From Escherichia coli (GTDB lineage Bacteria > Pseudomonadota > Gammaproteobacteria > Enterobacterales > Enterobacteriaceae): a stretch of 64,000 bases of DNA. Below the pieces are notes generated by a model that made no database searches, was not told where the DNA came from, and was given only the letters and a program-made list of their open reading frames with translations. The stretch lies in assembly GCF_030384885.1 (NCBI RefSeq), contig NZ_CP128613.1; one strand, 5' to 3'. Below, piece by piece: positions 11,895 through 63,888 of this stretch. Position numbers and translations under genes: made by a program. The first letter of the stretch is position 1. Each line of letters begins with the position of its first letter.

Positions 11895-12002
11895 GTTTCT
11901 TTCCTGAGACTGTCAACGATTGAAATGAATTAATACCGGCGACATTGTACGTCGCTTTTCAGCGCAGCCCCATAAGGGTTAGCTGAATTTACAAGATGGG
12001 CG

Positions 12003-12028
12003 CAAAAAGAAGCCGCCCTCAGGCGGCT
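12003..12028 (-). terminator. Intrinsic terminator after tsf
   Basis: AGCCGCC-ctca-GGCGGCT hairpin with T-run on the minus strand just downstream of the tsf stop. Confidence 0.55.
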
Positions 12029-12040
12029 CCTTTTCGATAA

Positions 12041-12892: not shown

Positions 12893-13149
12893 TCTAAAAT
12901 CCTCGGAGATGTGATCTGCCCGGCATTAAACCGCACAGATATAAAAGTGAAAAAGGGGGCCATATGCAGGCCCCCTAACCAAACGTGTACTACCTGGTCT
13001 ATAAGGGCTCTCCCCCTTCATATTTCGCGCCGCAGATGCGTTGTCTTCGCTCGCTCATCCCGGTCACTTACTGATGTAAGTTCCCGGGAATTCTCGAGCT
13101 TGCCGCCTTTCTGCAACTCGAACTATTTTGGGGGAGTTATCAAGCCTTA

Positions 13150-14097
<948 letters not shown>

Positions 14098-21404: not shown

Positions 21405-22829
21405 TTACTGCATTAACAGATAGATGGTGCTGTCGCCGCGCTGAATATTCAGTGCCAGCACAGACGGTTTGCTGTCGAGAACTTTACGCAGTTCAGCGAT
21501 GTTTTTCACTGCCTGCTGGTTCGCACCAATAATCACATCACCTTTCTTCAGGCCGATCTGCGCAGCCGGAGTGCCCGTTTTCACGTTGTTCACCACCACG
21601 CCCTGATCTTTGCCTTTGTTGCTCATCTCAGCGCCTTCAATGCCGTTGAAGATGGTGCTGGAATCAACCTGATTCTGGCTGCTCTGCTGCAGTTCCAGGT
21701 TCACGTTAACCTGCTTCCCGTCGCGCAGTAAGCCCAGGGTCAGTTTGCTGCCTACCGGCATAGTGCCCACCTGAGCACGCAGTGCGGCAAAGCTGCTGAT
21801 TGGCTTACCGTTCAGTGAGGTGATCACATCACCCGCTTTAATGCCCGCTTTCGCGGCGGAAGAGTTCGGCAGAACCTGGCTTACAAAAGCACCGCGCTGG
21901 GCGTCAACTTTCATCGCTTTCGCCAGATCGGAGTTCAGCTCAGTGCCCATAATACCCAGCTCACCACGTTTCACCTGGCCGTATTCCACCATCTGCGAGG
22001 TCAGGTTTTTCACCATGTTGCTCGGGATAGCAAAACCGATACCGATGTTTCCGCCGTCCGGTGCGAGGATCGCGGTGTTGATACCAATCAGTTCGCCGTT
22101 CAGGTTAACCAGCGCGCCACCGGAGTTACCACGGTTGATCGCAGCATCGGTCTGGATGAAGTTTTCGTAGTTTTCAGCGTTCAGGCCGCTACGTCCCAGC
22201 GCAGAGACAATCCCGGAAGTTACCGTCTCGCCCAGACCAAACGGGTTACCAATTGCTACGGTGTAATCACCCACGCGCAGTGCATCAGAATCCGCCATCT
22301 TAATTGCGGTCAGGTTTTTCGGATTCTGGATCTGGATCAGCGCGATATCAGAGCGCGGATCTTTGCCAACCATCTTCGCCTCGAACTTACGACCATCGCT
22401 CAGCTGGACTTTAATCACCGTCGCGTTATCAACAACGTGGTTGTTGGTGACGACATAGCCTTTATCGGCATCAATGATGACGCCGGAACCCAGCGCCATG
22501 AATTTCTGTTGCTGGCCGCCGCCATTACCGCCCTGGCCCCCCTGGCAGAACGGAGAGCTCTGGAACGGAGAACCTTCCTGGCAGAACGGAGAATCATCAC
22601 CGAAGAACTGCTGGAAATTACGCGGCATACGCGGCGTATTAACGGTTGTGCTACCTTCTACGTTAATGCTGACCACTGAAGGCATCACCTTTTCGAGCAT
22701 CGGTGCAAGGCTTGGCATCTGCTGGGCTGTCGTTGCTGAAGAAGTCTCAGCCGCCGTTGCAGAGAGCGGAGATAACGCCAAACCTAAACTCAGAGCCAGT
22801 GCACTCAGTGCTAATGTGGTTTTTTTCAT
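21405..22829 (-). CDS. degP: Periplasmic serine endoprotease DegP (HtrA)
   Basis: Track ORF 474 aa; signal peptide, trypsin-like GNSGGAL active-site motif, two PDZ domains. Confidence 0.95.
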   Translation of the reverse strand: MKKTTLALSALALSLGLALSPLSATAAETSSATTAQQMPSLAPMLEKVMPSVVSINVEGSTTVNTPRMPRNFQQFFGDDSPFCQEGSPFQSSPFCQGGQGGNGGGQQQKFMALGSGVIIDADKGYVVTNNHVVDNATVIKVQLSDGRKFEAKMVGKDPRSDIALIQIQNPKNLTAIKMADSDALRVGDYTVAIGNPFGLGETVTSGIVSALGRSGLNAENYENFIQTDAAINRGNSGGALVNLNGELIGINTAILAPDGGNIGIGFAIPSNMVKNLTSQMVEYGQVKRGELGIMGTELNSDLAKAMKVDAQRGAFVSQVLPNSSAAKAGIKAGDVITSLNGKPISSFAALRAQVGTMPVGSKLTLGLLRDGKQVNVNLELQQSSQNQVDSSTIFNGIEGAEMSNKGKDQGVVVNNVKTGTPAAQIGLKKGDVIIGANQQAVKNIAELRKVLDSKPSVLALNIQRGDSTIYLLMQ

Positions 22830-22871
22830 GTATTTCAGTCTCGATTAACAGATAACGCAAAATTGCTGTGT

Positions 22872-36300: not shown

Positions 36301-36371
36301 GAAACGCTACGGCGATAGCAAGTAGCATCCCCTTCAGTTCAATATAAAAGTTCAAGAATCAACCAGAGGAA

Positions 36372-36419
36372 TCAAAAAATGTTAATGATTGCACTGCAAA
36401 GTAAAACCACATTAACATT
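36372..36419 (-). terminator. Terminator-like hairpin between the accessory adhesin gene and fhuA
   Basis: AATGTTAATG ... CATTAACATT 10-bp inverted repeat (22-nt loop) followed on the minus strand by a TTTTTT run; AT-rich stem so predicted stability is modest. Confidence 0.45.
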
Positions 36420-36443
36420 TATGAAATAGGAGTCAGGGAAAGC

Positions 36444-37454
36444 TTATCGATAATACACTTCAAAGGTGGCGACAGAATTAACCAGACCACTTTTTACATT
36501 ACCCGTTTTGATATAACGCGCCTTTAATGGGATGTTAACATTTTGATTTAAAGTGGTTTTTTCGATAACAGTATACTCTGTATCAAATGCTATAACATTG
36601 TTATTACTGTCCAGGATCTGCAGGCCAACACCTTCCGCCATCCCCGATCCAGACTCAATATTGAGAATATTATTACTCGTTATCCCCGTGGATCCTGCGG
36701 AGGTGAAACGGTAATCAACCTTTACATCCTGGGAACAATTTTCAATATGAATTGAAAACCTATCATCAGAAACTACAGGTGACACATTGTTAACATCAAA
36801 ATCATCTGTTCCGATATCATCGAGTGGAACGGTAATATTCTTGTTAATAAGATCACATGTCCCTGGTATAATATTTACCGGCACAGAAATAAAACGAAGC
36901 TGTCCTATAACAAGATTGTCATACTTCCAGTCAGCAACTAATTTACTGGTGTCAATGACTCCATTACCGACAGGCCCTGTCACAACAAACTGAATAGCTG
37001 CATGTATTTTTATCGGATAAACATATCCTCTATTCACTATTGACGAGCCTTTATGCCATGGTGTTATTAAATAACCTGAGGTGAGTTGCGCATTAACGTT
37101 ATTCGCCCATGCAGCACGAAAACCAATCCCTGGAACATTCGTCTGAAACACATCATGAAGGGGGTTATCGGTACGCAAATCGCTATTTGTCAAGACGGTA
37201 AACCCTTGCCAAATGTCACCATTCGCCGAGCAGGAAACTGAAATTGAATTACTAGTAGCTTCGAGTGTGGTAATAATCGTTCCCGGCTCTGCATCGTTAT
37301 TAACATCTAACGCTGGAACTGAGAATTCTATTTTTGCCGGATTTCCCCCATTTCCCGAAATGCTGCAACCGGCGAAAGCCTCAGGAATGGCAACTAAGGC
37401 AAGAAATATTATAGTCAGTAATATTTTTACATAAGAGAAAAATCCTGGCTTCAT
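36444..37454 (-). CDS. Fimbrial tip adhesin (two-domain: N-terminal receptor-binding domain plus C-terminal pilin domain) of accessory chaperone-usher operon
   Basis: Track ORF 336 aa; signal peptide MKPGFFSYVKILLTIIFLALVAIPEAFA; C-terminal pilin-like region with Cys pair and terminal ...SVATFEVYYR beta-strand; last gene after the usher. Confidence 0.75.
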   Translation of the reverse strand: MKPGFFSYVKILLTIIFLALVAIPEAFAGCSISGNGGNPAKIEFSVPALDVNNDAEPGTIITTLEATSNSISVSCSANGDIWQGFTVLTNSDLRTDNPLHDVFQTNVPGIGFRAAWANNVNAQLTSGYLITPWHKGSSIVNRGYVYPIKIHAAIQFVVTGPVGNGVIDTSKLVADWKYDNLVIGQLRFISVPVNIIPGTCDLINKNITVPLDDIGTDDFDVNNVSPVVSDDRFSIHIENCSQDVKVDYRFTSAGSTGITSNNILNIESGSGMAEGVGLQILDSNNNVIAFDTEYTVIEKTTLNQNVNIPLKARYIKTGNVKSGLVNSVATFEVYYR

Positions 37455-37475
37455 TATTCATTCATGTCCTGTTTG

Positions 37476-39950
37476 TTATCGGCACTCTATTGTGGCCTTA
37501 TAGATACCTTTGGTATATGTTTCTGGCACAGCTATAATCCCTGTACATTGCTGATTGTTCTCTTTTCCCCACTGTACCGTAAATGACATGGCATTTTGCA
37601 CACCAGTAATATAAACCTCACCATCCTCACCGACAATTGATGTACTATCCCCTAATGTCAGCAATGATCCAAAGGGTACGTATTCTTTATCGTGGAGCAA
37701 TGTCAATAATGCTCTCATACCATTACGTGCTTTAAAATTGACACCAACGACGGCACCTTTCGAAGGAATAACATCTTGTGTTGCATCAACGATATCAAGA
37801 TTATCGTGCCCCTGAGTATTTACCGTAATGGTGTTATGTCGATAATTTGTCATATTAGGAATAATCGCGTTCCCCCAATAATCAGTATAAACTCCCTGCG
37901 CATTTTGTACTTTTACATTAGCACCATCATCAATATGCACAATCGCGAATGAATCCTGTACTGATTGCCCTAATGTTACTCCATGAGTATGCGCAACCAC
38001 CGCACCTTGTGCGCTATAATTCCATTGTCGACTATTTTTATCATAGTTATATCCCAGACCAAACTCGCCTACTGAACTACGATAACGTCCATTTATACTG
38101 GCACCATAACCCACGTTATTATCGGCATAAGTTTGTTGTAAATTATAGCTAAGGTTATTATCTTGCAGAGCAGTTCCAGCAATACCCATTTGATGAGAGG
38201 TATTACCTTTGTCTGAACGATTTGCATTATACGTCGCCCATGCCCCCGGCAACCAGCGAGACAGAGGAATATTGATTGACAATGAAAATTGCTGCTCACC
38301 AGCCATTCCAGGCATATCTGTCAGTGCGTAATTAACAGACCAGCTAATATCACTCCAGCTAGTACTATAACCCATTCCTATGCTGCGTTCGGATCCTTGC
38401 ATTCCCCAATAATCTTGTTGATAACCATTAAGATAGATCGATCCCCAACGACCTATATTTTGCGAAAGATTAATTTGCAAATGGTTACGTCTATTATTGG
38501 TCTGGCGATAACTATAAATACTCTTATCATCAGGAATATCACGTTGATCAAGTGCCTCCTGAAAAGTATAAAATTGCGATGTTGAATAACGATAGCTTGC
38601 CAGATTTAATGTCGTATCAGTATCTGGAAAATCTTTCGAATACATTGCACGCCATGACAGTCCAGTTGCATCATTGTGTTCTTCAAGTTTCGTATTTGCT
38701 GCTGTGATATCAATAGAAACCGATCCCAGGCGGCCTAAGTCAGCACCAATTCCGGTCACACCAGAACGGTACATGGAGGCTCCAAGTATGCCACCATAAA
38801 TCGTTATTCCATAAGGCAAACCATATATCGCTGTTGCAACCCCAAAAACAGGTTGCTCTGATTTATTATCACTGTCACGATATTTTCCAGCAGCAACACT
38901 ATATTTTAATGCGTTTTCTCGCTGTAGGATTGGAACCGCTGAACTAGCCTGAATAAAGCTGTGTTCTTGTCCATTTGTTTCCTTGATGGTAACGTCCAGA
39001 TCGGCCCCTGCCGTTACCTGGTTTAAGTCTTTAATTTCAAATGGCCCTGCTGATACCCATGTTTGGTAAATGACATAGCCATTCTGTTTAATCACAACTT
39101 GTGCGTCGCTATTTGCAATACCACGTACTACAGGCGCAAAGCCTTGTTCACTCTCAGGCAACATACTGGTATCAGTTTCAAGTTTTATACCTGTCATTTG
39201 CACACTATCAAAAAGTTCACCATTCGTGAAAGTTTGCCCGACTTCCATCTGGCTACGTAATATTTTGATATCACGTTGCAAACTGGTGCTAATCGAATCC
39301 CAATTGGAGCCACTATAAACAGTATTATTACGTAACCGCCATACACCTAAATTCACACCTGAGTTTAAATTCAACCAATTTGAGTTCAGGTTATCACCAT
39401 CACTATTTTGTTGAGAACCACTGACATAATAACTTAACCAGGCAGCACTATCGCCATCATTCCAGTATTTTGGTGAAATACTCCCTATGGCTCTTGAATT
39501 CTGATAAATTTGAGGAATTTGCAGCCGCAGTGTTTGACTATCTAGCTGGAAGTCATAACGTGCGCCATCAATAATCTGTGAAATATCGCCAACCTCAGCG
39601 TCATCATCCATTACTTGTAACGCAGGAATGGCACCCACGTTAAGTCCTAGCTCACCGAGATCTGCCTTTGTAAAACGAGGGATAAGTTTTTTTTTGTCTG
39701 AAGAAAGAATGAACGTAATGTTTCTCTTATCAAGATATTCTTGCCCCCACATTACAGAGGTAAGATAGACACCTGGCGTTAGATTGTTATTATTAATAAA
39801 CTCTTCCAGCACTTTTGTATTTTCAAGCGGACTATCCAACTCCAGGATACGTAAGTTAAATTCATCTCGTGCATAGCTCAATGAATACACTGTAGATAGC
39901 GCAAGCGCTACTCCAGTTAAAACAAATGTACAATGCAGTGGTAGCGGCAT
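37476..39950 (-). CDS. Fimbrial usher (outer membrane assembly platform) of accessory operon
   Basis: Track ORF 824 aa; size and composition typical of FimD/PapC-family ushers; positioned between chaperone and adhesin. Confidence 0.85.
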   Translation of the reverse strand: MPLPLHCTFVLTGVALALSTVYSLSYARDEFNLRILELDSPLENTKVLEEFINNNNLTPGVYLTSVMWGQEYLDKRNITFILSSDKKKLIPRFTKADLGELGLNVGAIPALQVMDDDAEVGDISQIIDGARYDFQLDSQTLRLQIPQIYQNSRAIGSISPKYWNDGDSAAWLSYYVSGSQQNSDGDNLNSNWLNLNSGVNLGVWRLRNNTVYSGSNWDSISTSLQRDIKILRSQMEVGQTFTNGELFDSVQMTGIKLETDTSMLPESEQGFAPVVRGIANSDAQVVIKQNGYVIYQTWVSAGPFEIKDLNQVTAGADLDVTIKETNGQEHSFIQASSAVPILQRENALKYSVAAGKYRDSDNKSEQPVFGVATAIYGLPYGITIYGGILGASMYRSGVTGIGADLGRLGSVSIDITAANTKLEEHNDATGLSWRAMYSKDFPDTDTTLNLASYRYSTSQFYTFQEALDQRDIPDDKSIYSYRQTNNRRNHLQINLSQNIGRWGSIYLNGYQQDYWGMQGSERSIGMGYSTSWSDISWSVNYALTDMPGMAGEQQFSLSINIPLSRWLPGAWATYNANRSDKGNTSHQMGIAGTALQDNNLSYNLQQTYADNNVGYGASINGRYRSSVGEFGLGYNYDKNSRQWNYSAQGAVVAHTHGVTLGQSVQDSFAIVHIDDGANVKVQNAQGVYTDYWGNAIIPNMTNYRHNTITVNTQGHDNLDIVDATQDVIPSKGAVVGVNFKARNGMRALLTLLHDKEYVPFGSLLTLGDSTSIVGEDGEVYITGVQNAMSFTVQWGKENNQQCTGIIAVPETYTKGIYKATIECR

Positions 39951-39991
39951 AAATTCCTTTTCGCCCTGGTATGAAAATACAATTAAGCGGT

Positions 39992-40708
39992 TTATAGTTT
40001 TTGTTGACGTTTCCCTGAACTTGAACCATAGTCAGTTATCACCGACCACTCAACAACACTACCTGCTCCAGCAGGAAGACTAAACCGATTCTCAGAAAAT
40101 GGACCAACCATCATCGACAATGCACCAGGTTCAGATTTCTCCTCGACAGCAGTAATGCTCTTACCTGATACTGTTAGCTCATTAAATGAAATATAAAAAG
40201 GCGTTGGATTTTTTACTATGAGCCTCCCTGATTCTTTATGAAATTTAAGTTTTTCCCATGCAGTTAAAGCGTCGCTATTACTCAAAGAATCTGGTCGCCA
40301 AAATAACTTAAGCCGTACTTTCATTGCAAATTGCAAGGTGTTTTTATCTTTTAGCTCCTCCGGCATAGCAGAAATAGATTTTATATTTGCTAAAAACAAA
40401 CTTTCTCTATCTTGAGGAAGGCTTTCTTTATTTCCTGTAAATACAACATGGAGTAGTGTTTGACGGTTTTCCTCAAGTTTATAAACGGGAGGCGTGATGA
40501 GAAAAGGGGCTTTAGAACCATCAATATTACTCACCCAACTTTGCACGAGATAACGAGCATGTGCGTCTTTATTCTTTAATGTAATTTGAACTTCATTTTG
40601 ATTTGAAGGATAGACAATGCGTGTACCACCAAGTACAACACCTGCTTGTGCTTGTATTGCAGTGAGAAGAAATGTAAATCCTAAAAAGAATCGATAAGAT
40701 ACTGACAT
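39992..40708 (-). CDS. Periplasmic fimbrial chaperone (PapD/FimC family) of accessory operon
   Basis: Track ORF 238 aa; signal peptide; GGTRIVYP... N-terminal motif typical of PapD-like chaperones. Confidence 0.85.
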   Translation of the reverse strand: MSVSYRFFLGFTFLLTAIQAQAGVVLGGTRIVYPSNQNEVQITLKNKDAHARYLVQSWVSNIDGSKAPFLITPPVYKLEENRQTLLHVVFTGNKESLPQDRESLFLANIKSISAMPEELKDKNTLQFAMKVRLKLFWRPDSLSNSDALTAWEKLKFHKESGRLIVKNPTPFYISFNELTVSGKSITAVEEKSEPGALSMMVGPFSENRFSLPAGAGSVVEWSVITDYGSSSGKRQQKL

Positions 40709-40753
40709 AAATAACCCTCCATGGTCAGATAGTCCTTCAATACACTATAAATA

Positions 40754-41320
40754 TTACCGATAGAAGACTTCAAACGTCGCAGATGAAGCATATTTCCCCG
40801 CAGTTGGCGGGTTATTACCAATCTGGATGACATTAGCAGTATAATTAAATATCGTGGGATTTACATCGCCAGCATTATCAACATCAGTGGATTCATCAGG
40901 GACAGAACCATCAAATTTTACACTACTTGTTCCGCCATTTTTATTTGTTACCGTAATACCCACATTTGTTGCACTACCCGCAGCAGTTTCGCTATTTTCA
41001 AGGCGAAGAGAACCAGTATCCGTTGTGGTTCCAGAAAATGTCAGGTTTAGTTTTGTAACCAATGGATCACACTTTAGCAACTCAATCTTAAAATCTTTTG
41101 AAGTCCCAATCGTACCATCCCCGGTATAGTCCGCAGGGTAAGTATCTGCAAAAGTCACCGTGCCTGTCGTACTACTAGAATCATTGACATTGATTTCGCA
41201 GGTATCAGCAACAATTTTACCATTGAAGTTAACAATCCCAGTATCTACAGCAAATACACTCGTACTTACTGCTGCCAGGAAAGTTCCTGACGCAAATAGA
41301 GAAAGCAATTTTTTATTCAT
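40754..41320 (-). CDS. Major fimbrial subunit (pilin) of accessory operon
   Basis: Track ORF 188 aa; signal peptide MNKKLLSLFASGTFLAAVSTSVFA; conserved Cys pair (DTCEIN ... LLKCDP); C-terminal SATFEVFYR; first gene of operon. Confidence 0.8.
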   Translation of the reverse strand: MNKKLLSLFASGTFLAAVSTSVFAVDTGIVNFNGKIVADTCEINVNDSSSTTGTVTFADTYPADYTGDGTIGTSKDFKIELLKCDPLVTKLNLTFSGTTTDTGSLRLENSETAAGSATNVGITVTNKNGGTSSVKFDGSVPDESTDVDNAGDVNPTIFNYTANVIQIGNNPPTAGKYASSATFEVFYR

Positions 41321-41653
41321 AAAAATCCCTTAATTATGAGTCAATAAAGCATGATTCCATTCCAGAGAGGCTGGGCAGGACTTGATAAATATTGATAATA
41401 TAAATATATGCAAATAATAAAATTATTTTAGATTAGAGCAAAAAACACATTACATGTCTATACGACATATAATAAAAAGGTTACAACCATCTGAAATTTA
41501 AAGATTTGTTCTTATTCTCAAAAATATAAAATCATAAATTAAAAATATAAATTCACCCCATTAGATTCATTAAATAAATACTTATTATATTTATCTATAT
41601 AACGTCATAGTAATCTATTACGCTCTCCGCATCAGCGGAGAGCTATTACGATA
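41321..41653 (-). promoter_or_regulatory. AT-rich control region upstream of accessory fimbrial operon (promoter expected here), including a perfect stem-loop next to the mrcB stop
   Basis: 333-bp strongly AT-rich non-coding stretch with many A/T tracts; 10-bp inverted repeat CGCTCTCCGC-atca-GCGGAGAGCG near 41623..41646; no promoter elements could be assigned with confidence. Confidence 0.4.
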
Positions 41654-51087: not shown

Positions 51088-51563
51088 CAGTGGCGTATAT
51101 TGCCATCGGCAGCAATCTGGCCTCTCCGCTGGAGCAGGTCAATGCTGCCCTGAAGGCAATAGATGACATTCCTGAAAGCCGCATTCTTGCCGTTTCTTCG
51201 TTTTACCGCACCCCACCGCTGGGGCCGCAAGATCAACCCGATTACTTAAACGCAGCCGTGGCGCTGGAAACCTCTCTTACAGCAGAAGAGCTCCTCAACC
51301 ACACACAGCGTATTGAGCTGCAGCAAGGTCGCGTCCGCAAAGCTGAACGCTGGGGACCGCGCACGCTCGATCTTGATATCATGTTGTTTGGTAATGAAAC
51401 CATTAATACCGAACGACTCACCGTCCCGCATTACGATATGAAGAATCGCGGCTTTATGCTGTGGCCGCTGTTTGAAATCGCGCCGAAGCTGGTCTTTCCT
51501 GATGGGACAGGATTAGACAACTTATTACGAATAAATAAGTTCGCTGAATTAAATAAATGGTAA
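51084..51563 (+). CDS. folK: 6-hydroxymethyl-7,8-dihydropterin pyrophosphokinase
   Basis: Track ORF 159 aa [26 protein letters not shown]; overlaps pcnB stop. Confidence 0.95.
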
Positions 51564-51886
51564 GGCAATAGTTTTGCAAATATAAATAAATTCCGAAAAT
51601 AGCTTTCACGCAATTACAATAATCCCTCCTCTAAGTTATAACCGTAATAATATAATATTCACCCCACTCAACAGCCCCACCCATATACACCATTATCATC
51701 ACATTAGATATTTAGTTTTACTTAAAAATGAATTAAGTGGATATTTAATTTTAAATATGCACAATATCCCCCCTAATGATGAACAGATGTTACATTCGGT
51801 AAATCCAAGCATCCATCATTAACAAACCATTCACCTTTTCTTTATCGAGACTTCCTGCTTGAGGAGGTCTGATTAAAGTTAAACTC
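51564..51886 (+). promoter_or_regulatory. AT-rich upstream region of the yad fimbrial operon
   Basis: About 320 bp non-coding, very AT-rich with A/T tracts, immediately 5' of yadN; typical of silenced fimbrial promoters; no specific elements assigned. Confidence 0.35.
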
Positions 51887-51910
51887 ATGGAATATGATTC
51901 AAGGATTTTT

Positions 51911-52495
51911 ATGTCTAAAAAATTAGGTTTTGCGCTCTCTGGTCTTATGCTGGCAATGGTTGCAGGTTCCGCTTCTGCTGATATGGACGGTGGTCAGTTA
52001 AATATCAGTGGTCTGGTTGTTGATAATACCTGTGAAACCCGCGTAGACGGCGGTAACAAAGATGGCCTGATCCTGCTGCAAACTGCAACCGTTGGAGAAA
52101 TCTCTGAGGGTGTGCTGGACACTACCGTTGGTGCTAAAGCTAAACCATTCAGCATTACTGTTGACTGTAGTAAAGCTAATCCGGCACCAGGCAGCACAGC
52201 AAAAATGACTTTCGGTTCAGTCTTCTTTGGTAACAGTAAAGGAACGCTGAATAATGATATGTCAATTAATACGCCATCGGACGGTGTTAATATTGCTCTG
52301 CACAATATCGAAGGTTCTGCTATCAAACAGGTTAAAATCAACAACCCTGGCGATATCTATTCCAAAGCACTGGATGCAACTTCTAAATCCGCAACTTATG
52401 ACTTTAAAGCATCTTATGTTCGTGCAGATGCGAGCCAACCAGGCACTGCTGGTTATGTGAAAACTAACACTGCATATACCGTTACTTATCAGTAA
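51911..52495 (+). CDS. yadN: Fimbrial major subunit YadN
   Basis: Track ORF 51887..52495; start placed at [24 protein letters not shown]-terminal ...TAYTVTYQ. Confidence 0.85.
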
Positions 52496-52591
52496 GCATT
52501 TCCATCCATATTCATGAATTGAATACATACAGGGAATAATATTGATATTTCATACTACTCCCTGTTTTTTTAACTCTGCCAGGAATGGTTT

Positions 52592-53332
52592 ATGTTTTTC
52601 AACACTAAACATACAGCAGCATTATGCTTCGCAACCTGTGTAGCTTTTAGCTCATCAGCTATAGCAGATATCGTAATTTCCGGTACACGCGTAATCTATA
52701 AAAGCGACCAAAAAAGTGTCAGCGTTCGTCTGGAAAATAAAGGCAATAACCCATTACTTGTTCAAAGTTGGCTGGATACCGGCGATGACAATGCTGAGCC
52801 TGGCAGTATTACCGTCCCCTTTACTGCGACTCCGCCCGTATCACGCATTGATGCAAAACGCGGCCAAACTATCAAACTGATGTACACCGCCAGTAGCGTC
52901 CTGCCAAAAGATAGAGAAAGTGTGTTCTGGTTTAACGTACTGGAAGTTCCTCCAAAACCAGATGCCGCAACAGCTACAAATCAAAGCCTGCTGCAGTTGG
53001 CATTTCGTACCCGTATCAAATTGTTTTATCGCCCTGAAGGGTTAAAGGGCAATCCGTCTGACGCGCCGTTAGCACTTAAATGGTCATGGGCAACTGCGGG
53101 AGGCCAAACAGCTTTGCAAGTAACAAACCCTACGCCTTATTACGTCTCATTTAGCAGTGGTGATTTAGAAACCAGCAGCAAGCGCTATCCACTCGACGTA
53201 AAAATGATTGCGCCATTCAGTAACGATGTCATCAAAGTGAACGGTATGAGTGGCAAATCAAGCTCTGCAAAAGTTCATTTCTACGCCATTAATGATTTTG
53301 GCGGAGCCATAGAAGGCAATGCAACTCTGTAA
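52592..53332 (+). CDS. yadV: Fimbrial periplasmic chaperone (EcpD/YadV)
   Basis: Track ORF 246 aa; PapD-like (ISGTRVIYKSDQKSVSVRLEN). Confidence 0.85.
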   Translation: MFFNTKHTAALCFATCVAFSSSAIADIVISGTRVIYKSDQKSVSVRLENKGNNPLLVQSWLDTGDDNAEPGSITVPFTATPPVSRIDAKRGQTIKLMYTASSVLPKDRESVFWFNVLEVPPKPDAATATNQSLLQLAFRTRIKLFYRPEGLKGNPSDAPLALKWSWATAGGQTALQVTNPTPYYVSFSSGDLETSSKRYPLDVKMIAPFSNDVIKVNGMSGKSSSAKVHFYAINDFGGAIEGNATL

Positions 53333-53367
53333 TCAGGCAAGGGATATTACGCAGCAGGAAGCGAAAC

Positions 53368-55965
53368 GTGCAAAAAATAACAATAATTCATCCTCATAAC
53401 CTCACGCAGATCGCTACGCTTTGTGCGCTGCTTTATAGTTCCTTTAGCATAAGTGCTGAACACGTTGAATATGACCATACCTTCCTGATGGGGCGTGATG
53501 CTTCAAATATCGACCTTAGTCGGTACAGTGAAGGTAACCCTACGCTACCCGGTATTTACGACGTAAATGTTTATGTTAATGATCAACCCGTCATTAACCA
53601 AAGTATCCCTTTTGTCGTTATTGACGGGAAGAAAAATGCCCAGGCTTGTATCACCCAAAAGAATATATTGCAGTTTCACATTACCCAACCAGATATTGAT
53701 AGTGAAAATGCGGTACTACTCGAGCGAGATGAAGAGCTCGGTGATTGCCTCAATCTAACCGAAATTATCCCGCAATCATCTGTGCGTTATGATGTGAATG
53801 ATCAACGACTGGATATTGATGTCCCACAGGCATGGGTCATGAAAAATTACCAAAACTATGTTGATCCGTCATTATGGGAAAATGGTATTAATGCTGCCAT
53901 GCTTTCATATAACGTTAATGGTTATCACAGTGAAAGCCCTGGCAGAAAAAATGACAGTATTTATGCCTCATTTAATGGTGGTGTGAATTTAGGCGCATGG
54001 CGAATGCGCGCTTCAGGTAACTACAACTGGATGAACGATTCTGGTAGCGATTACAACTTTCAGAATCGGTATCTGCAGCGCGATATTGCATCACTACGTT
54101 CGCAATTAATTATTGGTGAATCCTATACCACCGGGGAAACTTTTGATTCCGTCAGCATTCGTGGCGTTCGCTTATACAGCGACAGTCGGATGCTTCCCCC
54201 TGCATTAGCCAGTTTTGCTCCGGTTATTCATGGTGTCGCCAACACTAACGCAAAAGTGACTATCACTCAGAGCGGTTATAAGATCTATGAAACAACAGTA
54301 CCACCAGGCGCATTTACTATTGATGATCTCAGTCCATCAGGCTATGGCAGCGACCTCATTGTCACAATTGAAGAGGCTGATGGCTCAAAGCGGACTTTCT
54401 CTCAGCCATTTTCATCGGTAGTGCAAATGCTACGACCTGGCGTTGGTCGCTGGGATATTAGTGGTGGTCAGGTATTAAAGGACGATATTCAGGATGAACC
54501 TAATTTATTTCAGGCCAGCTACTACTATGGCCTAAACAACTACCTGACCGCGTATACAGGTATTCAGCTCACCGATAATAACTATACTGCCGGATTACTG
54601 GGACTTGGTTTAAATACGTCCCTGGGTGCTTTTTCTTTCGATGTCACTCACTCCAATGTCCGCATCCCTGAAGATAAAACATACCAGGGGCAGAGCTATC
54701 GTTTATCGTGGAACAAATTATTCGAAGATACCAGTACGTCGCTAAATATCGCGGCCTACCGCTATTCAACGCAGAATTATCTTGGTCTTAATGACGCTTT
54801 AACACTCATTGATGAAGTGAAGCATCCAGAGCAAGAGCTTGAACCGCAATCCATGCGGAATTACTCGCGCATGAAAAATCAGGTTACGGTCAGTATTAAC
54901 CAACCGCTGAAATTTGAGAAAAAAGATTACGGCTCCTTTTATCTTTCAGGAAGCTGGTCCGACTATTGGGCTTCCGGCCAAAATCAAAGCAATTATTCCA
55001 TTGGCTACAGCAATAGTGCCTCCTGGGGCAGCTATAGCATTAGTGCTCAGCGTTCCTGGAATGAAGATGGTGAAACCGATGATAGTATCTATCTCAGTTT
55101 CACCATTCCAATTGAAAAACTCCTGGGGACAGAACACCGTGATTCAGGTTTCCAGAATATTGACACTCAGCTAAACAGCGATTTTAAAGGTAATAATCAA
55201 CTAAATATCAGTAGCAGTGGTTACAACGATAACAATCGCATCAGTTACAGCGTGAATACTGGCTATACGATGAATAAATCCACCGATGATTTAAGTTATA
55301 TCGGGGGTTATGCCAGTTATGAATCCCCATGGGGAACATTGGCCGGTTCGGTTTCCGCAAGTAGTGATAATAGCCGTCAGTTTTCGCTCAATACCGACGG
55401 GGGTTTTGTGCTACACAGTGGAGGCCTCACATTCAGTAACGACAGCTTTAGTGATTCCGACACTCTGGCAGTGGTTCAGGCCCCCGGAGCAAAAGGCGCC
55501 CGTATCAACTACGGTAATAGCACTGTAGATCGCTGGGGCTATGGCGTAACCAGCGCCCTGTCGCCATATCATGAAAACCGCATCGCTCTGGATATTAACG
55601 ATCTTGAGAACGATGTTGAATTGAAAAGTACCAGTACTGTTGCCGTACCGCGTCAGGGCTCTGTCATCTTCGCTGGTTTTGAAACGGTACAGGGGCAATC
55701 AGCGATTATGAATATTAAACGTAGCGACGGTCGTAACATTCCATTTGCTGCGGATATTTATGATGAGCAAGGCAATAATATTGGAAATGTCGGCCAGGGC
55801 GGGCAAGCTTTTGTACGTGGTATCAGTCAACAGGGTAATATCCAGATTAAATGGCTCGAAGCAGGTAAGCCCGTAAATTGCCTGGCCCATTATCAACAAA
55901 ACGCAGAAGCAGAAAAGATCGCACAAACGATTATCATCAATGGAATTAATTGTCAGATTCAGTAA
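53368..55965 (+). CDS. htrE: Fimbrial usher HtrE
   Basis: Track ORF 865 aa; usher-family size and composition; operon position. Confidence 0.9.
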   Translation: MQKITIIHPHNLTQIATLCALLYSSFSISAEHVEYDHTFLMGRDASNIDLSRYSEGNPTLPGIYDVNVYVNDQPVINQSIPFVVIDGKKNAQACITQKNILQFHITQPDIDSENAVLLERDEELGDCLNLTEIIPQSSVRYDVNDQRLDIDVPQAWVMKNYQNYVDPSLWENGINAAMLSYNVNGYHSESPGRKNDSIYASFNGGVNLGAWRMRASGNYNWMNDSGSDYNFQNRYLQRDIASLRSQLIIGESYTTGETFDSVSIRGVRLYSDSRMLPPALASFAPVIHGVANTNAKVTITQSGYKIYETTVPPGAFTIDDLSPSGYGSDLIVTIEEADGSKRTFSQPFSSVVQMLRPGVGRWDISGGQVLKDDIQDEPNLFQASYYYGLNNYLTAYTGIQLTDNNYTAGLLGLGLNTSLGAFSFDVTHSNVRIPEDKTYQGQSYRLSWNKLFEDTSTSLNIAAYRYSTQNYLGLNDALTLIDEVKHPEQELEPQSMRNYSRMKNQVTVSINQPLKFEKKDYGSFYLSGSWSDYWASGQNQSNYSIGYSNSASWGSYSISAQRSWNEDGETDDSIYLSFTIPIEKLLGTEHRDSGFQNIDTQLNSDFKGNNQLNISSSGYNDNNRISYSVNTGYTMNKSTDDLSYIGGYASYESPWGTLAGSVSASSDNSRQFSLNTDGGFVLHSGGLTFSNDSFSDSDTLAVVQAPGAKGARINYGNSTVDRWGYGVTSALSPYHENRIALDINDLENDVELKSTSTVAVPRQGSVIFAGFETVQGQSAIMNIKRSDGRNIPFAADIYDEQGNNIGNVGQGGQAFVRGISQQGNIQIKWLEAGKPVNCLAHYQQNAEAEKIAQTIIINGINCQIQ

Positions 55966-55980
55966 CCACAAGGGCTCCAC

Positions 55981-56556
55981 ATGATAAAAATGACACCATA
56001 TAAATTGACAATACTGATGGGTATATTATTTTCACCTTCAGTATTTGCTACAGATATTAATGTTGATTTCACCGCAACGGTGAAGGCGACAACCTGTAAT
56101 ATTACTCTCACTGCACTGAATGGCTCAAGTGTTACAGATGATGGTAACGATAATTACATACTACGTATACCTAATATGGGGTTGGATAAAATAGTTAATA
56201 AAACAGCCGAAGCCCAGGCAGACTTTAAACTGATCGCCAGTGGTTGTAGCGGTGGCATCAGCTGGATTGATACAACGCTGTCAGGGAATAAGTCTGGCAG
56301 CTCCCCAAAATTGATAGCGCCATTATCATCAGACACATCCTCAACAACCAGCTATATTGGTATGGGAATTAAAAAAATAAATACTGATGATTCTACATTT
56401 CTGACCCCTAACAGCGCAGAGAAAATTCGCTGGAGCCTGACAGAAATCAATACAGACGGTCTCTCAATGACCGTTGCATTGCGTGAAACAGGTACAGGTC
56501 AAGGCATACCAGGTAATTTTCGTGCTAAGGCAACTTTTAATTTCACCTATCAATAA
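55981..56556 (+). CDS. yadM: Fimbrial minor subunit YadM
   Basis: Track ORF 191 aa, signal peptide, C-terminal ...ATFNFTYQ; exact start uncertain. Confidence 0.8.
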   Translation: MIKMTPYKLTILMGILFSPSVFATDINVDFTATVKATTCNITLTALNGSSVTDDGNDNYILRIPNMGLDKIVNKTAEAQADFKLIASGCSGGISWIDTTLSGNKSGSSPKLIAPLSSDTSSTTSYIGMGIKKINTDDSTFLTPNSAEKIRWSLTEINTDGLSMTVALRETGTGQGIPGNFRAKATFNFTYQ

Positions 56557-56570
56557 CAAGGATGACAATA

Positions 56571-57176
56571 ATGATGTATAAAAAATTACGTTATGGATTA
56601 TCCGTAAGTATGATTCTTGCTGCATCCCAGTTAGTCGCGCCATCCTATGCGGCTACCGACAGTATCGGTCTGACAGTCGTTACCACTGTTGAGACTGGGA
56701 CTTGCGATGCACAACTGGTTAATGATAGCAATCAACAAATTTCTGCGGTGGATTTTGGCGATGTTTATATTTCTGAAATCGATAAAAAATTAAAAATTAA
56801 GACTTTCAAATTACAGTTTAAAAACTGCGCGGGTATTCCCGGGAAAAAGGCTCTGATAAACCTGACCAAACGCGCAACTTGCGAAGGGACCAGTAATGAC
56901 GGAGCAGGTTTTGCAAATGGTTCTACAGGTACCGGCAAAGCAAGCGCCGTTGTGGTAGAAGTCTGGAACACCACTGTACCTGCAACGGGAAGTGCGGCTC
57001 CATTTAGCTGTGCAGCACCGGCAAATAAAGAGGTAATTATTGCCTCCGCCACAGGTAATAACGTAGTGGACTATCCGATGAGCGCCCGTCTGGTGGTTGA
57101 TAAAGATAAAACTGTCAGCGACGTTACCGCTGGCACATTTTCTGCACCAGCAACATTTACCGTGACTTACAACTAA
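56571..57176 (+). CDS. yadL: Fimbrial minor subunit YadL
   Basis: Track ORF 56562..57176; start at MMYKKLRYGLSV assumed; C-terminal ...ATFTVTYN. Confidence 0.78.
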   Translation: MMYKKLRYGLSVSMILAASQLVAPSYAATDSIGLTVVTTVETGTCDAQLVNDSNQQISAVDFGDVYISEIDKKLKIKTFKLQFKNCAGIPGKKALINLTKRATCEGTSNDGAGFANGSTGTGKASAVVVEVWNTTVPATGSAAPFSCAAPANKEVIIASATGNNVVDYPMSARLVVDKDKTVSDVTAGTFSAPATFTVTYN

Positions 57177-57201
57177 CTGGTCGCCATATCAGGTACTTAC
57201 T

Positions 57202-57798
57202 ATGCATCCCACCCAACGTAAAATGACGAAGAAAACAGGTTTATTTCTGTCGTTAATATTATCAATGATACACCCCGTCATGGCGGGAATGGATATTGAT
57301 ATGACGGCTAATGTCAAAAATAGCACCTGCAAAAGCGGAATTAGCAATCAAGGTAATATCGATCTTGGCGTCGTCGGTGTGGGATATTTTGCCGGTAATA
57401 CCTCTGCTGAAGACCATCAACCTAGCGGAAAAGAATTTACCATCACGGTGACAGACTGTGCATTTCAGGGAACAGGAGATGTACTCAATCAGTTGCATAT
57501 TGAATTCCGCCCTCTTAGCGGTGTAATGGCAACAGGCTCTAGGCAAATATTTAATAATGAGAACGTCTCGGGGGCCAGTAATGTTGGCGTCGTTATCTTT
57601 TCTATCCAGGACCCGGCAAACACCTTCAATGTTCTGAATACAGCTGGCATTTCTCGTTCAATTTATCCGGTGATGTCATCAGAGATGAATAACTCATCCT
57701 GGAAATTTTATACCCGAATGCAAAAAGTTAACCCAGCACTTAACATTACATCCGGTCAAGTCAAAAGTACTGTACTGGTCGACGTCTACTATGAGTAA
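57202..57798 (+). CDS. yadK: Fimbrial minor subunit YadK
   Basis: Track ORF 198 aa; C-terminal ...VLVDVYYE. Confidence 0.8.
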   Translation: MHPTQRKMTKKTGLFLSLILSMIHPVMAGMDIDMTANVKNSTCKSGISNQGNIDLGVVGVGYFAGNTSAEDHQPSGKEFTITVTDCAFQGTGDVLNQLHIEFRPLSGVMATGSRQIFNNENVSGASNVGVVIFSIQDPANTFNVLNTAGISRSIYPVMSSEMNNSSWKFYTRMQKVNPALNITSGQVKSTVLVDVYYE

Positions 57799-57822
57799 CC
57801 TCTAATATAAGAAGATAATAAT

Positions 57823-59103
57823 ATGTTAACGCTAAAAATCGTATATAAAACGCAAGCATTTTTAAAGTGCTGCATTCTGCTCTTATTATCTCTTTCTAGT
57901 ATTTCTTTCGCGGCTAACACTGGTTTTGTTGTAGGAAATCCCCCCCCATCGCCCACTAGTCTGGCTGGGCCCTCAGGTAATGGAAAAGCAACTTTCAGAT
58001 ACAACACTATCGCAAACAATTTAGTTTTTTATAAACCTACAGGTTCAGGCATTAACCAAACGGGAGTAAAACTATACTGGGCACAATTAGATAGTGCACT
58101 TGGTGGTGTAGGAAATGGAGTTATTTATTGTAACACCAGTAATAATGCCAGTGGTGGACCGATGACACTTACAAATGCAATGGTTGACTCTGGTTTCACT
58201 TACAATGGTCATAAATTATTTAAAACATCTGTTCCAGGTCTCTATTACACATTGTCAATTTTCAACGTGTGGTCAGCTTGGGTAAAATCTAATATCAGCG
58301 CAAATGGTCTTTATATTGGAGATGCTGCTAAGCAATACTTTTCATTCTATGTAGCTGACCCGGACCTTCAGAGAAACGGATGTAACAAGGCAAACTCAAT
58401 GAGTAAGTATTGGGCAATTGGTGGTGTAATGCAGAGCCTCACTGTCGAATTTTATACTGACTCCTCTTTCGATCCTGTACAAAACCAAAAGGTTCAATTG
58501 TTACGTACTAGCGACTATCTTTATGCTTTTCATGCTGAAGGCGCTGGCGTTGGCATTAATGAACATAGTCATTTTCTTTTTATAGATTTTGATCTAACTA
58601 ATATCACAATTACATTACCTACATGCTTCACCTCCGTTTTGAGTGGTTCGGCTGTCAGTGGCTCAACAGTAAAAATGGGTGAATATACTTCCCAACAAAT
58701 AAAAAATGGGGCAACCCCAGTTCCTTTTGATATTAACTTACAAAACTGCATCCGTGTTCGTAATATTGAAACAAAACTCGTCTCCACAAAAATCGGCACA
58801 GAAAACAAGAAACTTCTGGGTAATACGCTCACAGGTAATGATGCGGCAAAAGGAGTTGGTGTATTAATTGAAGGGTTAGCCACCAACAAAAGTGTAAAAA
58901 TGATACTGGAACCCAATGTTTCAACATCTGTTTATAAAGATTACGAAACGGAAAATGATACCACTGATGGGATTTACCCAAATCAGGGTAACGGTACTTC
59001 ACAACCTCTTCATTTCCAGGCGACCTTACAACAAGACGGAAATATTCCTATAGAGTCAGGGGAGTTAAAAGCCACCAGTACTTTTCAGGTGACCTATCCC
59101 TGA
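57823..59103 (+). CDS. yadC: Fimbrial tip adhesin YadC (two-domain)
   Basis: Track ORF 426 aa; last gene of the yad operon; C-terminal ...[11 protein letters not shown]-terminal segment appears to differ from the K-12 allele as I recall it. Confidence 0.78.
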
Positions 59104-60872: not shown

Positions 60873-60891
60873 TACTTATACTCTAAATAAT

Positions 60892-61005
60892 TCAAGTTGC
60901 AGGAAGGCGGCAAGCGAGTGAATCCCCAGGAGCTTACATAAGTAAGTGACTGGGGTGAGCGAACGCAGACGCAGCACATGCAACTTGAAGTATGACGAGT
61001 ATAAC
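60892..61005. repeat. ERIC (IRU) enterobacterial repetitive intergenic consensus element
   Basis: GTGAATCCCCAGGAGCTTACATAAGTAAGTGACTGGGGTGAGCGAACGCAGACGCAGCACATGCAACTTGAAGTATGACGAG closely matches the ERIC consensus; intergenic between convergent panC and rpnC. Confidence 0.75.
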
Positions 61006-61092: not shown

Positions 61093-62001
61093 TTAGTTAA
61101 TCAGCTTATCAAGCTCAGCAAGAGGTAAATTTGCCATCTCTGCAACGTCTTCCCGAGACATTCCTTTACTCAGAAGACGCAGGGCGAATTCTTGCCTTTC
61201 CTCCTGTCTTCCCAGCTGAATCCCCTTCTCAATCCCCTTCTCAATTCCCTTCTCTTCAAACCACTGCGCCAACGTCATCATAGACTCCCCTCCCGTTTCC
61301 CTGTCTCTCACCACACCATAAAACAAATCCGCTTGTTCAGTATGACCGCGTTGCAGCATATAGTTTTGCATGGCAACTAACTGACTTCCGCTAGTGTACC
61401 CTTCGTCAATCAGCGTGACCAGTTGCTCCAGCAATAACATTAAGTCGCGCTGGCGAATATGTTTTTGCAGCAGTTCGAGAATCGCAATCCGCCGATGTTG
61501 CATGATTTCGTCATCCGGTGTGATAGTGATATCCACCAGCGGGAAAGGACTGTTATAGACGCGTCGCGCCAGCTCCGGCGAGTAAAACATATCAAACCAG
61601 CACATTGAGAGTGGATAAGGCGTGGCCTCGCCCTGATAAAACAAAATCGGCACCACCAGCGGCAGCTTATCGTGGTCAGCCTCCAGATGCCGGTGCATGG
61701 CGGCAATAGAATAACGCATCATACGAAACGCCATTTTTTTGTCCGGCTTGCTTTGGTGTTCAATCACAACATGTAGATAGCCCGTATTACCCTGCATTTG
61801 CACGGAATAGAGCACGTCAGTGCTGTGCCCTTTCAGGCTTTCTTCAATAAAACTCCCCGACTCAAGATGCAGCGTGTCGAGATCACACAGTTCGCGTAGC
61901 TCCGCTGGCAAATGGATATCCAGAAAGTCGCGAGCCGTTTCCGCGTGCATTAAAAATTGTTTAAACACCGCATCATGCGGTGTGGTACTCGGTGCATCCA
62001 T
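61093..62001 (-). CDS. rpnC: Rpn-family recombination-promoting nuclease / transposase_31-like protein (YadD/RpnC)
   Basis: Track ORF 302 aa MDAPSTTPHDAVFKQFLMHAETARDFLDIHLPAELRELCDLDTLHLESGSFIEE; YhgA/Rpn family features; no flanking inverted repeats seen. Confidence 0.85.
   Translation of the reverse strand: MDAPSTTPHDAVFKQFLMHAETARDFLDIHLPAELRELCDLDTLHLESGSFIEESLKGHSTDVLYSVQMQGNTGYLHVVIEHQSKPDKKMAFRMMRYSIAAMHRHLEADHDKLPLVVPILFYQGEATPYPLSMCWFDMFYSPELARRVYNSPFPLVDITITPDDEIMQHRRIAILELLQKHIRQRDLMLLLEQLVTLIDEGYTSGSQLVAMQNYMLQRGHTEQADLFYGVVRDRETGGESMMTLAQWFEEKGIEKGIEKGIQLGRQEERQEFALRLLSKGMSREDVAEMANLPLAELDKLIN
61219..61254. repeat. In-frame 12-bp x3 tandem repeat inside rpnC (encodes EKGI-EKGI-EKGI)
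   Basis: AATCCCCTTCTC AATCCCCTTCTC AATTCCCTTCTC read directly on the + strand. Confidence 0.7.
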
Positions 62002-62658: not shown

Positions 62659-63888
62659 TCACCCCTGCGGCTGGTTACTCACCAGCCGCGACATCGTCTC
62701 CAGCGAATCCGTTCTTAAGATATAAAGCCGTTTTAGTAACAACGGATTATCCCCCGGTTTTACTTTGCCTTTCATGGTGGTCACTGCCAGATGAAATCCG
62801 GCTTCACGTGCCGCCTTCACCGCTTTGTCATTAAAACCGCCAAACGGATAAGAAAGATACAAGACATGTGGATTAAACTGCGCCAGCGCCCGACGCGATC
62901 GCGCAAAATCAAACAGAATATTGTGCTCACTACGGCTCAGTAATATGGGGCGGCGATAGCCATCTATCCGATGCAAAAAATGAGTATGTGACTGGAAATC
63001 AAATACATCACGAATTTCGTTAAGCTCAGAAATGCTCATAAATTGCAGCGATTTTGGATCCCATTTCTGCGGGTGACGTTTGATGCGCGAGGTAACAATA
63101 AATGCCGTCGCCTTCATACCATAGTGTTTCAACACAGGATACGCATAGCGGCTAACCGACTTGAGACCATCATCAAAGGTAATCACCACGGCACGTGCCG
63201 GGAGATTAATGTTATTCTGCACGTAACCTTCCAACTGCGTCATGCTCAGTGTCGCGTATCCCCTGTCGCGCAGCCAGGCCATCTGGTTATTGAAGGCGCG
63301 TACCGAGGTGGTCGTCGAAGTATGGCGAAAACGGGTGTTTTCTTCGTCGCGCAGAATATGATGATAGGTTAGCACCGGCAGGCCATTGTCGGGTTGGGCA
63401 TCCAGCGCGCTGATAAAGGCCAGTCGATCGCCAATACGGACCTGATACCAGGTTTGGTTTAACCTGTCTTTCAGTTTATGCAAAATCGGATAACGCAAAT
63501 TGTCCGCCAGTACCCCAAATGGCGCACTGCCCACACTCGGCGCGTTATAAACCGGCGTATCTTTCCAGGTTATTAAGTTCTGATTACTCAGCGGCTTGTT
63601 GAGGTCACCCAAACCGTCTTCAACTTTTTGTCGCCCCTGAACCGGCTCGAGATGACCTTTATCGATAAACCCTTTGCCAAAGCCAAAATTAAATGCGTAA
63701 TAACTTGCGGCAGTGGGCTCCACGGCAATGATTTGTCCGGCCCGAATATTCCCTACCGTCACCATTTTGTCGCCAATTTGCGCCCAAACCGCGGCATTTT
63801 CGATAGTTTGCATATAACGGGCAGGTAATGCGGCACTGACGCTTGTGGTAAACAGCATCAGCAGGAGAATAACAGCTTGTTTATACAT
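62659..63888 (-). CDS. yadE: Polysaccharide deacetylase family protein YadE
   Basis: Track ORF 409 aa, signal peptide [19 protein letters not shown]; NodB-like region (LTYHHI..., VITFDDG); synteny. Confidence 0.85.

Follow-up and report, generated by a model that had tools for sequence, protein, structure and literature searches.

How much of the unusual character of a fimbrial adhesin belongs to the adhesin itself, and how much to the operon and the genome that carry it? We addressed this question in a 64,000-nucleotide stretch of Escherichia coli DNA (NCBI RefSeq assembly GCF_030384885.1, contig NZ_CP128613.1), hereafter the window, in which positions 51564–59103 hold the yad chaperone-usher fimbrial operon. 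An earlier inspection of the letters alone, made without database searches (the sequence-only reading), had described this operon as intact and had proposed that its tip adhesin, YadC, departs from the K-12 allele in its N-terminal region. With a probability that we put at about 85%, the window carries the Yad operon at its ancestral site, flanked by folK and panB, in the allele that characterises Escherichia cryptic clade I.

Yad fimbriae are core-associated, occupy a fixed locus, are orthologous to the Sta fimbriae of Salmonella and were inferred to be present in the common ancestor (Wurpel et al. 2013, PMC3559732). A 2026 survey in PLoS Pathogens, in which 911 of 1310 complete genomes were Yad-positive, reported conservation of 80–100% for the major subunit, the chaperone and the usher, 60–100% for the minor subunits and 45–100% for the adhesin, as well as recombination in Yad and a YadC lectin domain that is less conserved than the pilin domain (PMC13245861).

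Identity of the operon

Seven intact open reading frames (ORFs), yadN-yadV-htrE-yadM-yadL-yadK-yadC, all on the + strand and separated by gaps of 14–96 bp, lie between folK and panB; position 51564 is the first base 3' of the folK stop codon and 59103 the final base of the yadC stop codon. The same seven ORFs are annotated by RefSeq in the near-identical genome NZ_CP027579.1, and K-12 has the identical gene set, order and neighbours at this locus. The intact seven-gene operon of the sequence-only reading is thereby borne out and given exact coordinates. The first three genes encode a major fimbrial subunit of 194 amino acids (yadN, 51911–52495), a PapD-like periplasmic chaperone of 246 (yadV, also called ecpD, 52592–53332) and an outer-membrane usher of 865 (htrE, 53368–55965). 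They are followed by three minor fimbrial subunits, YadM (55981–56556, 191 amino acids), YadL (56571–57176, 201) and YadK (57202–57798, 198), and by the two-domain tip adhesin YadC (57823–59103, 426).

Each protein was compared with the Pfam and NCBIfam collections. Membership of the chaperone family was judged by the presence of both immunoglobulin-like (Ig-like) domains and of the conserved cleft residues Arg8 and Lys112. YadV has both domains (PapD_N, PF00345, E = 3e-45; PapD_C, PF02753, E = 5e-19), its mature N-terminus DIVISGTR puts Arg at position 8, the Lys motif RIKLFYRP was found, and the protein scores 454 bits against the equivalog model NF007398 (cutoff 285). In HtrE, the PapC_N, Usher and PapC_C domains all lie far over their gathering scores, and the match to NF007337 reaches 1678 bits (cutoff 830). 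The identity of HtrE is 88.0% to K-12 and 88.4% to the EC958-like type represented by strain FCI17, so it clears the published limit for a Yad usher, at least 80% in both identity and length relative to the EC958 HtrE (PMC13245861). YadL (NF011797, 371 bits, cutoff 206), YadK (NF011794, 301 bits, cutoff 132) and YadC (NF007267, fimbrial-like adhesin, 723 bits, cutoff 391) match their own models. The best or secondary NCBIfam matches of YadN, YadM and YadL are the Salmonella proteins StaA, StaD and StaE, those to StaA (134 bits, cutoff 230) and StaD (149 bits, cutoff 228) being sub-threshold. The Pfam Fimbrial domain (PF00419) is present in all five subunits, and all five have a penultimate Tyr, the C-termini being TYQ in YadN (...TVTYQ), TYQ in YadM (...NFTYQ), TYN in YadL (...TVTYN), YYE in YadK and TYP in YadC.

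The predicted architecture of YadC is that of a tip adhesin. A signal peptide (codons 1–30, 57823–57912) precedes a lectin domain (codons 31–264, 57913–58614) and a pilin domain (codons 265–426, 58615–59100), and the Pfam Fimbrial match spans only residues 278–425. Searching the Protein Data Bank (PDB) with the YadC sequence gave no meaningful match, that is, no solved relative was detectable by sequence, and the comparison was therefore made at the level of the fold only. In an AlphaFold2 model built with 36 homologues (mean predicted local distance difference test score, pLDDT, 85.5), the best Foldseek matches in the PDB are the two-domain tip adhesins FimH, LpfD, CupB6 and PapG, and the best single-domain matches are pilins, e.g. 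FimF and FimA. The model thus predicts the layout of FimH-, LpfD- and PapG-type adhesins, an N-terminal beta-sandwich lectin joined to a C-terminal incomplete Ig-like pilin domain, although sequence identity to these proteins is 10–13% and the lectin is larger, at about 235 residues against about 158 in FimH. A mis-called start codon behind the odd N-terminus of YadC was considered and rejected: there is no alternative in-frame ATG, RefSeq uses the same start, and the signal peptide is kept in two relatives of the same allelic class, L008 and L010, introduced below.

Fimbrial types of this kind are defined by locus position together with usher phylogeny (Wurpel et al. 2013, PMC3559732). In the window the position from folK to panB, the gene order and the two-domain YadC all agree with Yad. 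The usher belongs to a lineage that we take to be clade gamma-4 of Nuccio and Baumler 2007. As judged from its sequence, the region is the Yad chaperone-usher operon of E. coli, a system that is already well known.

Lineage and rarity of the allele

The allele is scarce among finished genomes. At an identity of at least 99%, the operon occurs in 2 of 5426 complete E. coli genomes, 2013C-4282 and 2020CK-00188, and the next-best genomes are 81% identical across the first 82% of the region, with yadC no closer than about 70%. Strain 2013C-4282 is among the complete Escherichia cryptic clade I genomes of Okuno et al. 2023 (PMC10100065). The window differs from it at 5 positions in 30,437 bases, namely 34306 in fhuA, 38482 in the usher gene of an accessory fimbrial operon, 57540 in yadK, 58400 in yadC (which changes residue 193 from Thr to Met) and 63735 in yadE. 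From these differences we read the window's strain as a very close relative of 2013C-4282, distinct from its record. The yadE gene itself (62659–63888, − strand) is an intact ORF of 409 codons in the window and a RefSeq pseudogene with an internal stop in 2013C-4282.

A second named strain points the same way: TW10509, given as clade I (PMC7716201), has the exact HtrE sequence and a YadC in the same 90%-identity cluster. This cluster comprises 38 distinct sequences, one of them labelled E. fergusonii, and each of the two commonest is on about 285–299 contigs; the exact YadC sequence of the window is on 15 contigs. The yad allele, although known and annotated, is therefore rare in finished E. 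coli genomes; in clade I it is common. The strain-to-strain variability of YadC, supposed in the sequence-only reading, agrees with the dozens of 90%-identity YadC clusters in E. coli and with the published survey (PMC13245861).

An origin as a foreign island from outside Escherichia was rejected, as locus, gene order and guanine-plus-cytosine (GC) content (0.429 against 0.428) match the yad operon of K-12 and the nearest relatives are all Escherichia. A scan for HtrE in species-representative genomes, which required exact matches of 8-residue peptides, returned only 2 loci and is uninformative on origin.

Divergence from K-12

The yadC ORF confirmed the length of 426 amino acids and the N-terminus quoted in the sequence-only reading, and alignment showed that YadC does differ from the K-12 allele: amino-acid identity between the two is 61.6% and nucleotide identity 73.2%. 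By domain, amino-acid identity is 52.6% in the lectin and 77.8% in the pilin, far from the near-identity to the lectin of b0135 that marks a K-12-type YadC allele. The suggestion that the divergence sits in the N-terminal region of YadC captured something real, but it is not confined there, because the whole operon and about the last 18 codons of folK differ as well. Amino-acid identity to K-12 is 90.2% for YadN, 86.6% for YadV and 88.0% for HtrE, and falls to 78.2% for YadM, 74.5% for YadL and 75.3% for YadK, while nucleotide identity drops along the operon from 86% to 73%. Divergence grows from the 5' genes (yadN, yadV, htrE) to the 3' genes (yadM, yadL, yadK, yadC), and it spills over on both sides, reaching the 3' end of folK on the left and the 5' part of panB on the right. 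On these alignments we regard the whole operon as a distinct allelic class with 73–86% nucleotide identity to K-12.

Such a pattern might reflect nothing more than the genome-wide distance between a cryptic clade I host and E. coli sensu stricto, with nothing specific to the locus. The strain is indeed clade I. Outside yad its identity to K-12, at 97.0% in the window's first 36 kb and about 93–99% in 2-kb windows beyond the yad neighbourhood, is below that of most E. coli, and the flanking genes pcnB and panC are somewhat more diverged, at about 93.5% nucleotide identity. Identity dips to about 90–93% in the 2–3 kb either side of yad and collapses within it. However, synonymous distance (dS) to K-12, calculated by the method of Nei and Gojobori (NG86), is 0.32 in pcnB and 0.30 in panC, 0.66 in yadN, and 1.3–2.5 from yadV to yadC (1.43 in htrE, 2.5 in yadM), values that are saturated and roughly four to eight times those of the flanks, with nucleotide identities of 73–86%. 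Nor is the allele bound to one lineage: its backbone is found in L010, which has a K-12-like left flank, and in contigs labelled E. fergusonii, and unrelated operon classes occupy the locus in strains whose flanks are 98–99% identical. We therefore consider a purely genome-wide cause improbable, and favour a clade I allele that is divergent in its own right. The saturation of dS between alleles accords with the inferred presence of Yad in the common ancestor (PMC3559732).

Rapid diversifying (positive) selection acting on the adhesin in situ is less probable again. The nonsynonymous distance (dN) to K-12 does peak in the lectin domain, at 0.40 against 0.14 in the pilin domain; the lectin is the receptor-binding part, and functional consequences of YadC variation have been proposed (PMC13245861). 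Against this, pairwise dN/dS is 0.05–0.16 throughout the operon and 0.09–0.16 in both YadC domains. The dN/dS comparison put forward in the sequence-only reading thus gave values well below 1, with saturated dS, and does not indicate pervasive positive selection. Within the allelic class, moreover, the lectin has a dS of 1.15–1.25 against 0.03–0.10 in adjacent sequence, the signature of imported old sequence, and the boundaries of the lectin block are sharp. The low dN/dS therefore argues, at the level of sequence, that the yad allele is an old polymorphism under purifying selection and not the product of fast evolution in situ.

Mosaic structure and recombination

To resolve the ancestry of the operon, the pcnB–panC region of the window was aligned with that of six other strains. 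Comparison with FCI17, which represents the type of extraintestinal pathogenic E. coli (ExPEC), divides the operon in two: yadN and the 5' two-thirds of yadV are 92–98% identical (yadN 95% in nucleotides, YadN 97.9% in amino acids), and from the 3' end of yadV on identity is 75–85%, with htrE at only 82% in nucleotides. An FCI17-like 5' part joined to a divergent remainder indicates that blocks of differing ancestry meet within the operon. From htrE on, the window is as distant from FCI17 as from K-12, nucleotide identity falling from 82% to 74%, whereas the K-12 and FCI17 types are about 95% identical to each other from htrE to yadL; the allele of the window is therefore an outlier, a third class within Yad.

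Two members of the window's own class located a further junction inside yadC. The contigs L008 (labelled E. fergusonii) and L010 (E. coli) share 95–99% identity with the window over yadN to yadK, and regain it from about codon 245 of yadC onward. Between about 57920 and 58550, a block that covers the mature lectin domain, identity falls to 54–77% in nucleotides and to 76–77% in the amino acids of the lectin. The edges of this block are sharp, with 0–2 mismatches per 30 nucleotides outside and 4–30 inside, and dS to L008 and L010 is 1.15–1.25 in the lectin, 0.065–0.105 in the pilin domain and 0.03–0.15 in the other yad genes. Within the operon, strong differences between strains of one class are limited to the lectin block, and the class-specific signal peptide of YadC is conserved in both relatives. 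Since synonymous sites in the block have diverged as much as replacement sites, we attribute the divergent lectin to exchange by recombination and not to rapid evolution in place. The same asymmetry recurs among 106 full-length YadC representatives, which at 80% identity fall into 21 lectin clusters and 7 pilin clusters: 220 pairs combine pilin domains at least 97% identical with lectins less than 85% identical, and no pair has the reverse pattern.

Exchange also seems to involve the operon as a whole. Strain 2017-02-2CC matches the window at 98–99% in its flanks, as far as the folK tail on the left and beginning with panB on the right, and it has the same accessory fimbrial operon. The seven-gene operon between these flanks (L006, 19622–26711) has 35–60% protein identity to that of the window, with HtrE at 60%, and is unique among the 5426 complete genomes. 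E200086 (L016, 18779–25814), with the same type of left flank, carries a further class, its HtrE being 59.5% and its YadC 40% identical to the window's; taken together, the two operons share 33–60% protein identity with the window's and with each other (HtrE 54–60%). On this sequence evidence 2017-02-2CC and E200086, both with flanks 98–99% identical to the window's, exemplify whole-operon replacement between the same flanks. L010 combines a window-like yad backbone with a left flank that is 96.5% identical to K-12.

The left edge of the exchanged segment falls in the 3' end of folK (51504–51563), which encodes the C-terminal 18–20 or so residues of FolK. FolK is near-invariant up to ...LVFPDG; beyond this point the sequence differs by yad class (W, K-12, FCI17, V and X), and the last 18 or so residues read, for example, EMLRQILHTRAFDKLNKW in K-12 and ETLQVILTKLNTIQPEIW in 2017-02-2CC. 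Across this end (51340–51639) the identity of the window to 2017-02-2CC in sliding windows goes from 99% to 70%. Such a class-dependent tail places the left recombination junction of the yad cassette within folK. A repeat search at the yad locus yielded only short matches at chance level, with no flanking direct repeats and no invertible element, and both a mobile-island origin and a phase-switch mechanism were rejected on the absence of flanking or inverted repeats.

Several further features of these genomes were noted. In L008 (GCA_017890025.1, labelled E. fergusonii; contig positions 1839–3733 versus 11399–13056) the yad backbone and the panB–panC flank are 98–99% identical to the window, and the 3' half of pcnB together with folK only 80–85%; this pattern suggests an import of yad plus panBC across the species boundary, the species label being that of the source. 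In 2020CK-00188, the only complete genome other than 2013C-4282 to have the allele, yadC is annotated as frameshifted (L007, 25538–26817), and the operon at the yad locus of 2017-02-2CC has a frameshift in its chaperone gene (L006, 20301–21039). Inactivation of single genes at the yad locus seems frequent. About 220 bp downstream of panC, some 2 kb from the yad locus, lies rpnC (yadD; 61093–62001, − strand), a gene for a recombination-promoting nuclease. K-12 has nothing that corresponds to the panC–rpnC spacer (about 60879–61001), and in FCI17 rpnC is broken into fragments. That Rpn activity might contribute to the high recombination at yad is pure speculation.

Control region

The folK–yadN leader (51564–51910) is 347 bp long with a GC content of 32%, against about 43% for the operon and 50–53% for folK and panB, and is presumed to hold the yad promoter and an H-NS-silenced control region. 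A Shine-Dalgarno-like AAGGA lies 8 nucleotides upstream of the yadN ATG. No terminator was found by scanning after yadC, and an Rfam scan of the whole window returned nothing in or near yad.

H-NS represses the yadN promoter in K-12, CFT073 and EC958, and Yad is further reported to be induced by serum and not to be phase-variable (PMC13245861). By analogy, the AT-rich leader of the present allele is probably silenced by H-NS. An inverted-repeat search found no pair flanking the leader, and neither the operon nor its immediate surroundings contain a recombinase gene. The yad locus here thus lacks what characterises fim-type phase variation, in line with the published non-phase-variable Yad.

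Elsewhere in the window, the Rfam matches above the gathering score are ordinary conserved elements, all on the − strand: CssrA at 12955–13064, the t44 RNA upstream of rpsB at 13903–13989 and the HtrA/DegP 5'-untranslated-region thermometer at 22824–22869.

The neighbouring fimbrial operon

The sequence-only reading had also pointed to two complete fimbrial operons on opposite strands about 10 kb apart, which proved correct. A second complete chaperone-usher operon of four genes (36444–41320, − strand) lies 10.6 kb from yadN and is divergently transcribed, encoding a major subunit (40754–41320), a chaperone (39992–40708), an usher (37476–39950) and an adhesin of 336 amino acids (36444–37454). 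The segment that holds it (36309–41649) sits between fhuA and mrcB and has no K-12 counterpart. Because SE15 has an operon at the same mrcB–fhuA site, we assign it, probably, to the 'ECSF_0165' fimbrial type of Wurpel et al. 2013. The operon is present in 574 of the 5426 genomes (about 10%), in 2 of them at an identity of at least 99% and in 572 at about 84%, so that it is a sporadic type, of which the window has a rare allele. Its adhesin gave a weak, sub-threshold match to an MrkD-like receptor-binding domain, and no solved relative was found for the N-terminal domain.

The sequence lends no support to the cross-talk, promiscuous assembly or co-regulation between the two systems that had been raised as a possibility. 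The two operons assort independently, as 2020CK-00188 has the yad allele without the neighbouring operon and SE15 and 2017-02-2CC have the neighbouring operon with other yad types. A functional pair, joined by common assembly machinery or by co-regulation, has in its favour only proximity and that this strain has a rare allele of each, and is the least probable explanation of all, given that the chaperones (33% identical) and ushers (29%) belong to different sub-families, each operon holds a complete set of its own parts with no regulator gene, seven housekeeping genes stand in between, and the neighbouring operon is missing in K-12.

Discussion

Taken together, the alignments favour a Yad operon at folK–panB in a clade I allelic form. 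Several points count against this interpretation and temper it. By NG86, dS over about 1 is saturated and only semi-quantitative, and the YadC protein sample is one of cluster representatives, without weighting by frequency. Two named strains, together with contig counts, are the basis for calling the allele typical of clade I. One relative with the same flank type has a different operon and one with the same allele has a frameshifted yadC, so that the allele is not fixed and is not functional in every case. Transfer between clade I, E. coli sensu stricto and E. fergusonii may have run in either direction, the E. fergusonii labels being those of the data sources. Finally, a scan for consensus sigma-70 promoters found none in the leader (13 promoter-like sites in the scanned region, no more than the 20.2 expected from shuffled sequence), and the operon may be cryptic under laboratory conditions.

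If the operon works as its family does, YadN, YadM, YadL, YadK and YadC would be exported by Sec and capped by YadV through donor-strand complementation, and the HtrE usher would polymerise them by donor-strand exchange. YadC would be incorporated first and occupy the tip, with YadM, YadL and YadK as adaptors and YadN forming the shaft. Expression would probably be held silent by H-NS bound to the AT-rich leader, as in K-12 and ExPEC. In evolutionary terms, the yad locus is probably an old multi-allelic polymorphism, with a synonymous distance to the K-12 allele that has reached saturation and purifying selection retained. Alleles and sub-modules pass between lineages by homologous recombination, and the receptor-binding lectin domain of YadC is swapped as a unit between otherwise near-identical operons. 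The most likely effect of lectin exchange is an altered receptor specificity and/or antigenicity.

A broader proposal can be offered only tentatively. The folK–panB locus could be a long-lived, trans-lineage balanced polymorphism, in which whole seven-gene operons are swapped by homologous recombination through conserved stretches where folK ends and panB begins, and, inside an operon class, the lectin alone via the signal-peptide and pilin sequences. The clade I lectin might then have a receptor or host tropism unlike the xylose and annexin-A2 binding of other alleles, aiding the enteric lifestyle of clade I. Likewise, phylogroups D and E, scored 'Yad-negative' at the 80% HtrE threshold, may hold very distant allelic operons (HtrE about 60%) instead of lacking one; operons of the 2017-02-2CC and E200086 type would score as 'Yad-negative' under that published threshold.

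Compared with known systems, the operon of the window is closest in organisation to the Yad of K-12 MG1655 (yadN-yadV/ecpD-htrE-yadMLKC, b0141–b0135), with which it shares locus, gene number, order, orientation, nearly the same protein lengths and a GC content of about 43%. It differs in the leader, the FolK tail and a YadC signal peptide that is different and 8 residues longer. The YadC of K-12 is reported to bind xylose and that of CFT073 annexin A2 (PMC6921372, PMC13245861), and xylose binding is not to be assumed for the window's allele. The Yad of ExPEC (EC958/ST131-like, represented by FCI17, and CFT073; PMC13245861) is the same system with the same pattern of conserved and variable genes and domains. 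Further away, Salmonella Sta (staABCDEFG) is the orthologue at the same chromosomal position (PMC3559732), and a YadC-like adhesin of Salmonella is about 43% identical to the window's YadC.

To conclude, the Yad system, its variation and the variability of YadC were already known, and the window holds an ordinary system in a rare allele. What is new is incremental: the clade I assignment, the synonymous-site evidence for lectin exchange, the class-dependent tail of FolK and, at the same locus, operon classes that are very distant. Typing or virulence-gene screens based on K-12 or ExPEC yadC or htrE at high identity will miss or mis-score this allele, and miss the V and X classes more readily still. 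YadC is under consideration as an anti-adhesion target (PMC6921372), and clade I strains are emerging enteric pathogens (PMC10100065); with a lectin about 53% identical to that of K-12, inhibitors or antibodies directed at one allele need not act on clade I. The practical value of these findings is modest and the view of chaperone-usher systems is unchanged; for the biology of the family, the yad locus is a clear instance of an adhesin that recombines at the level of modules.

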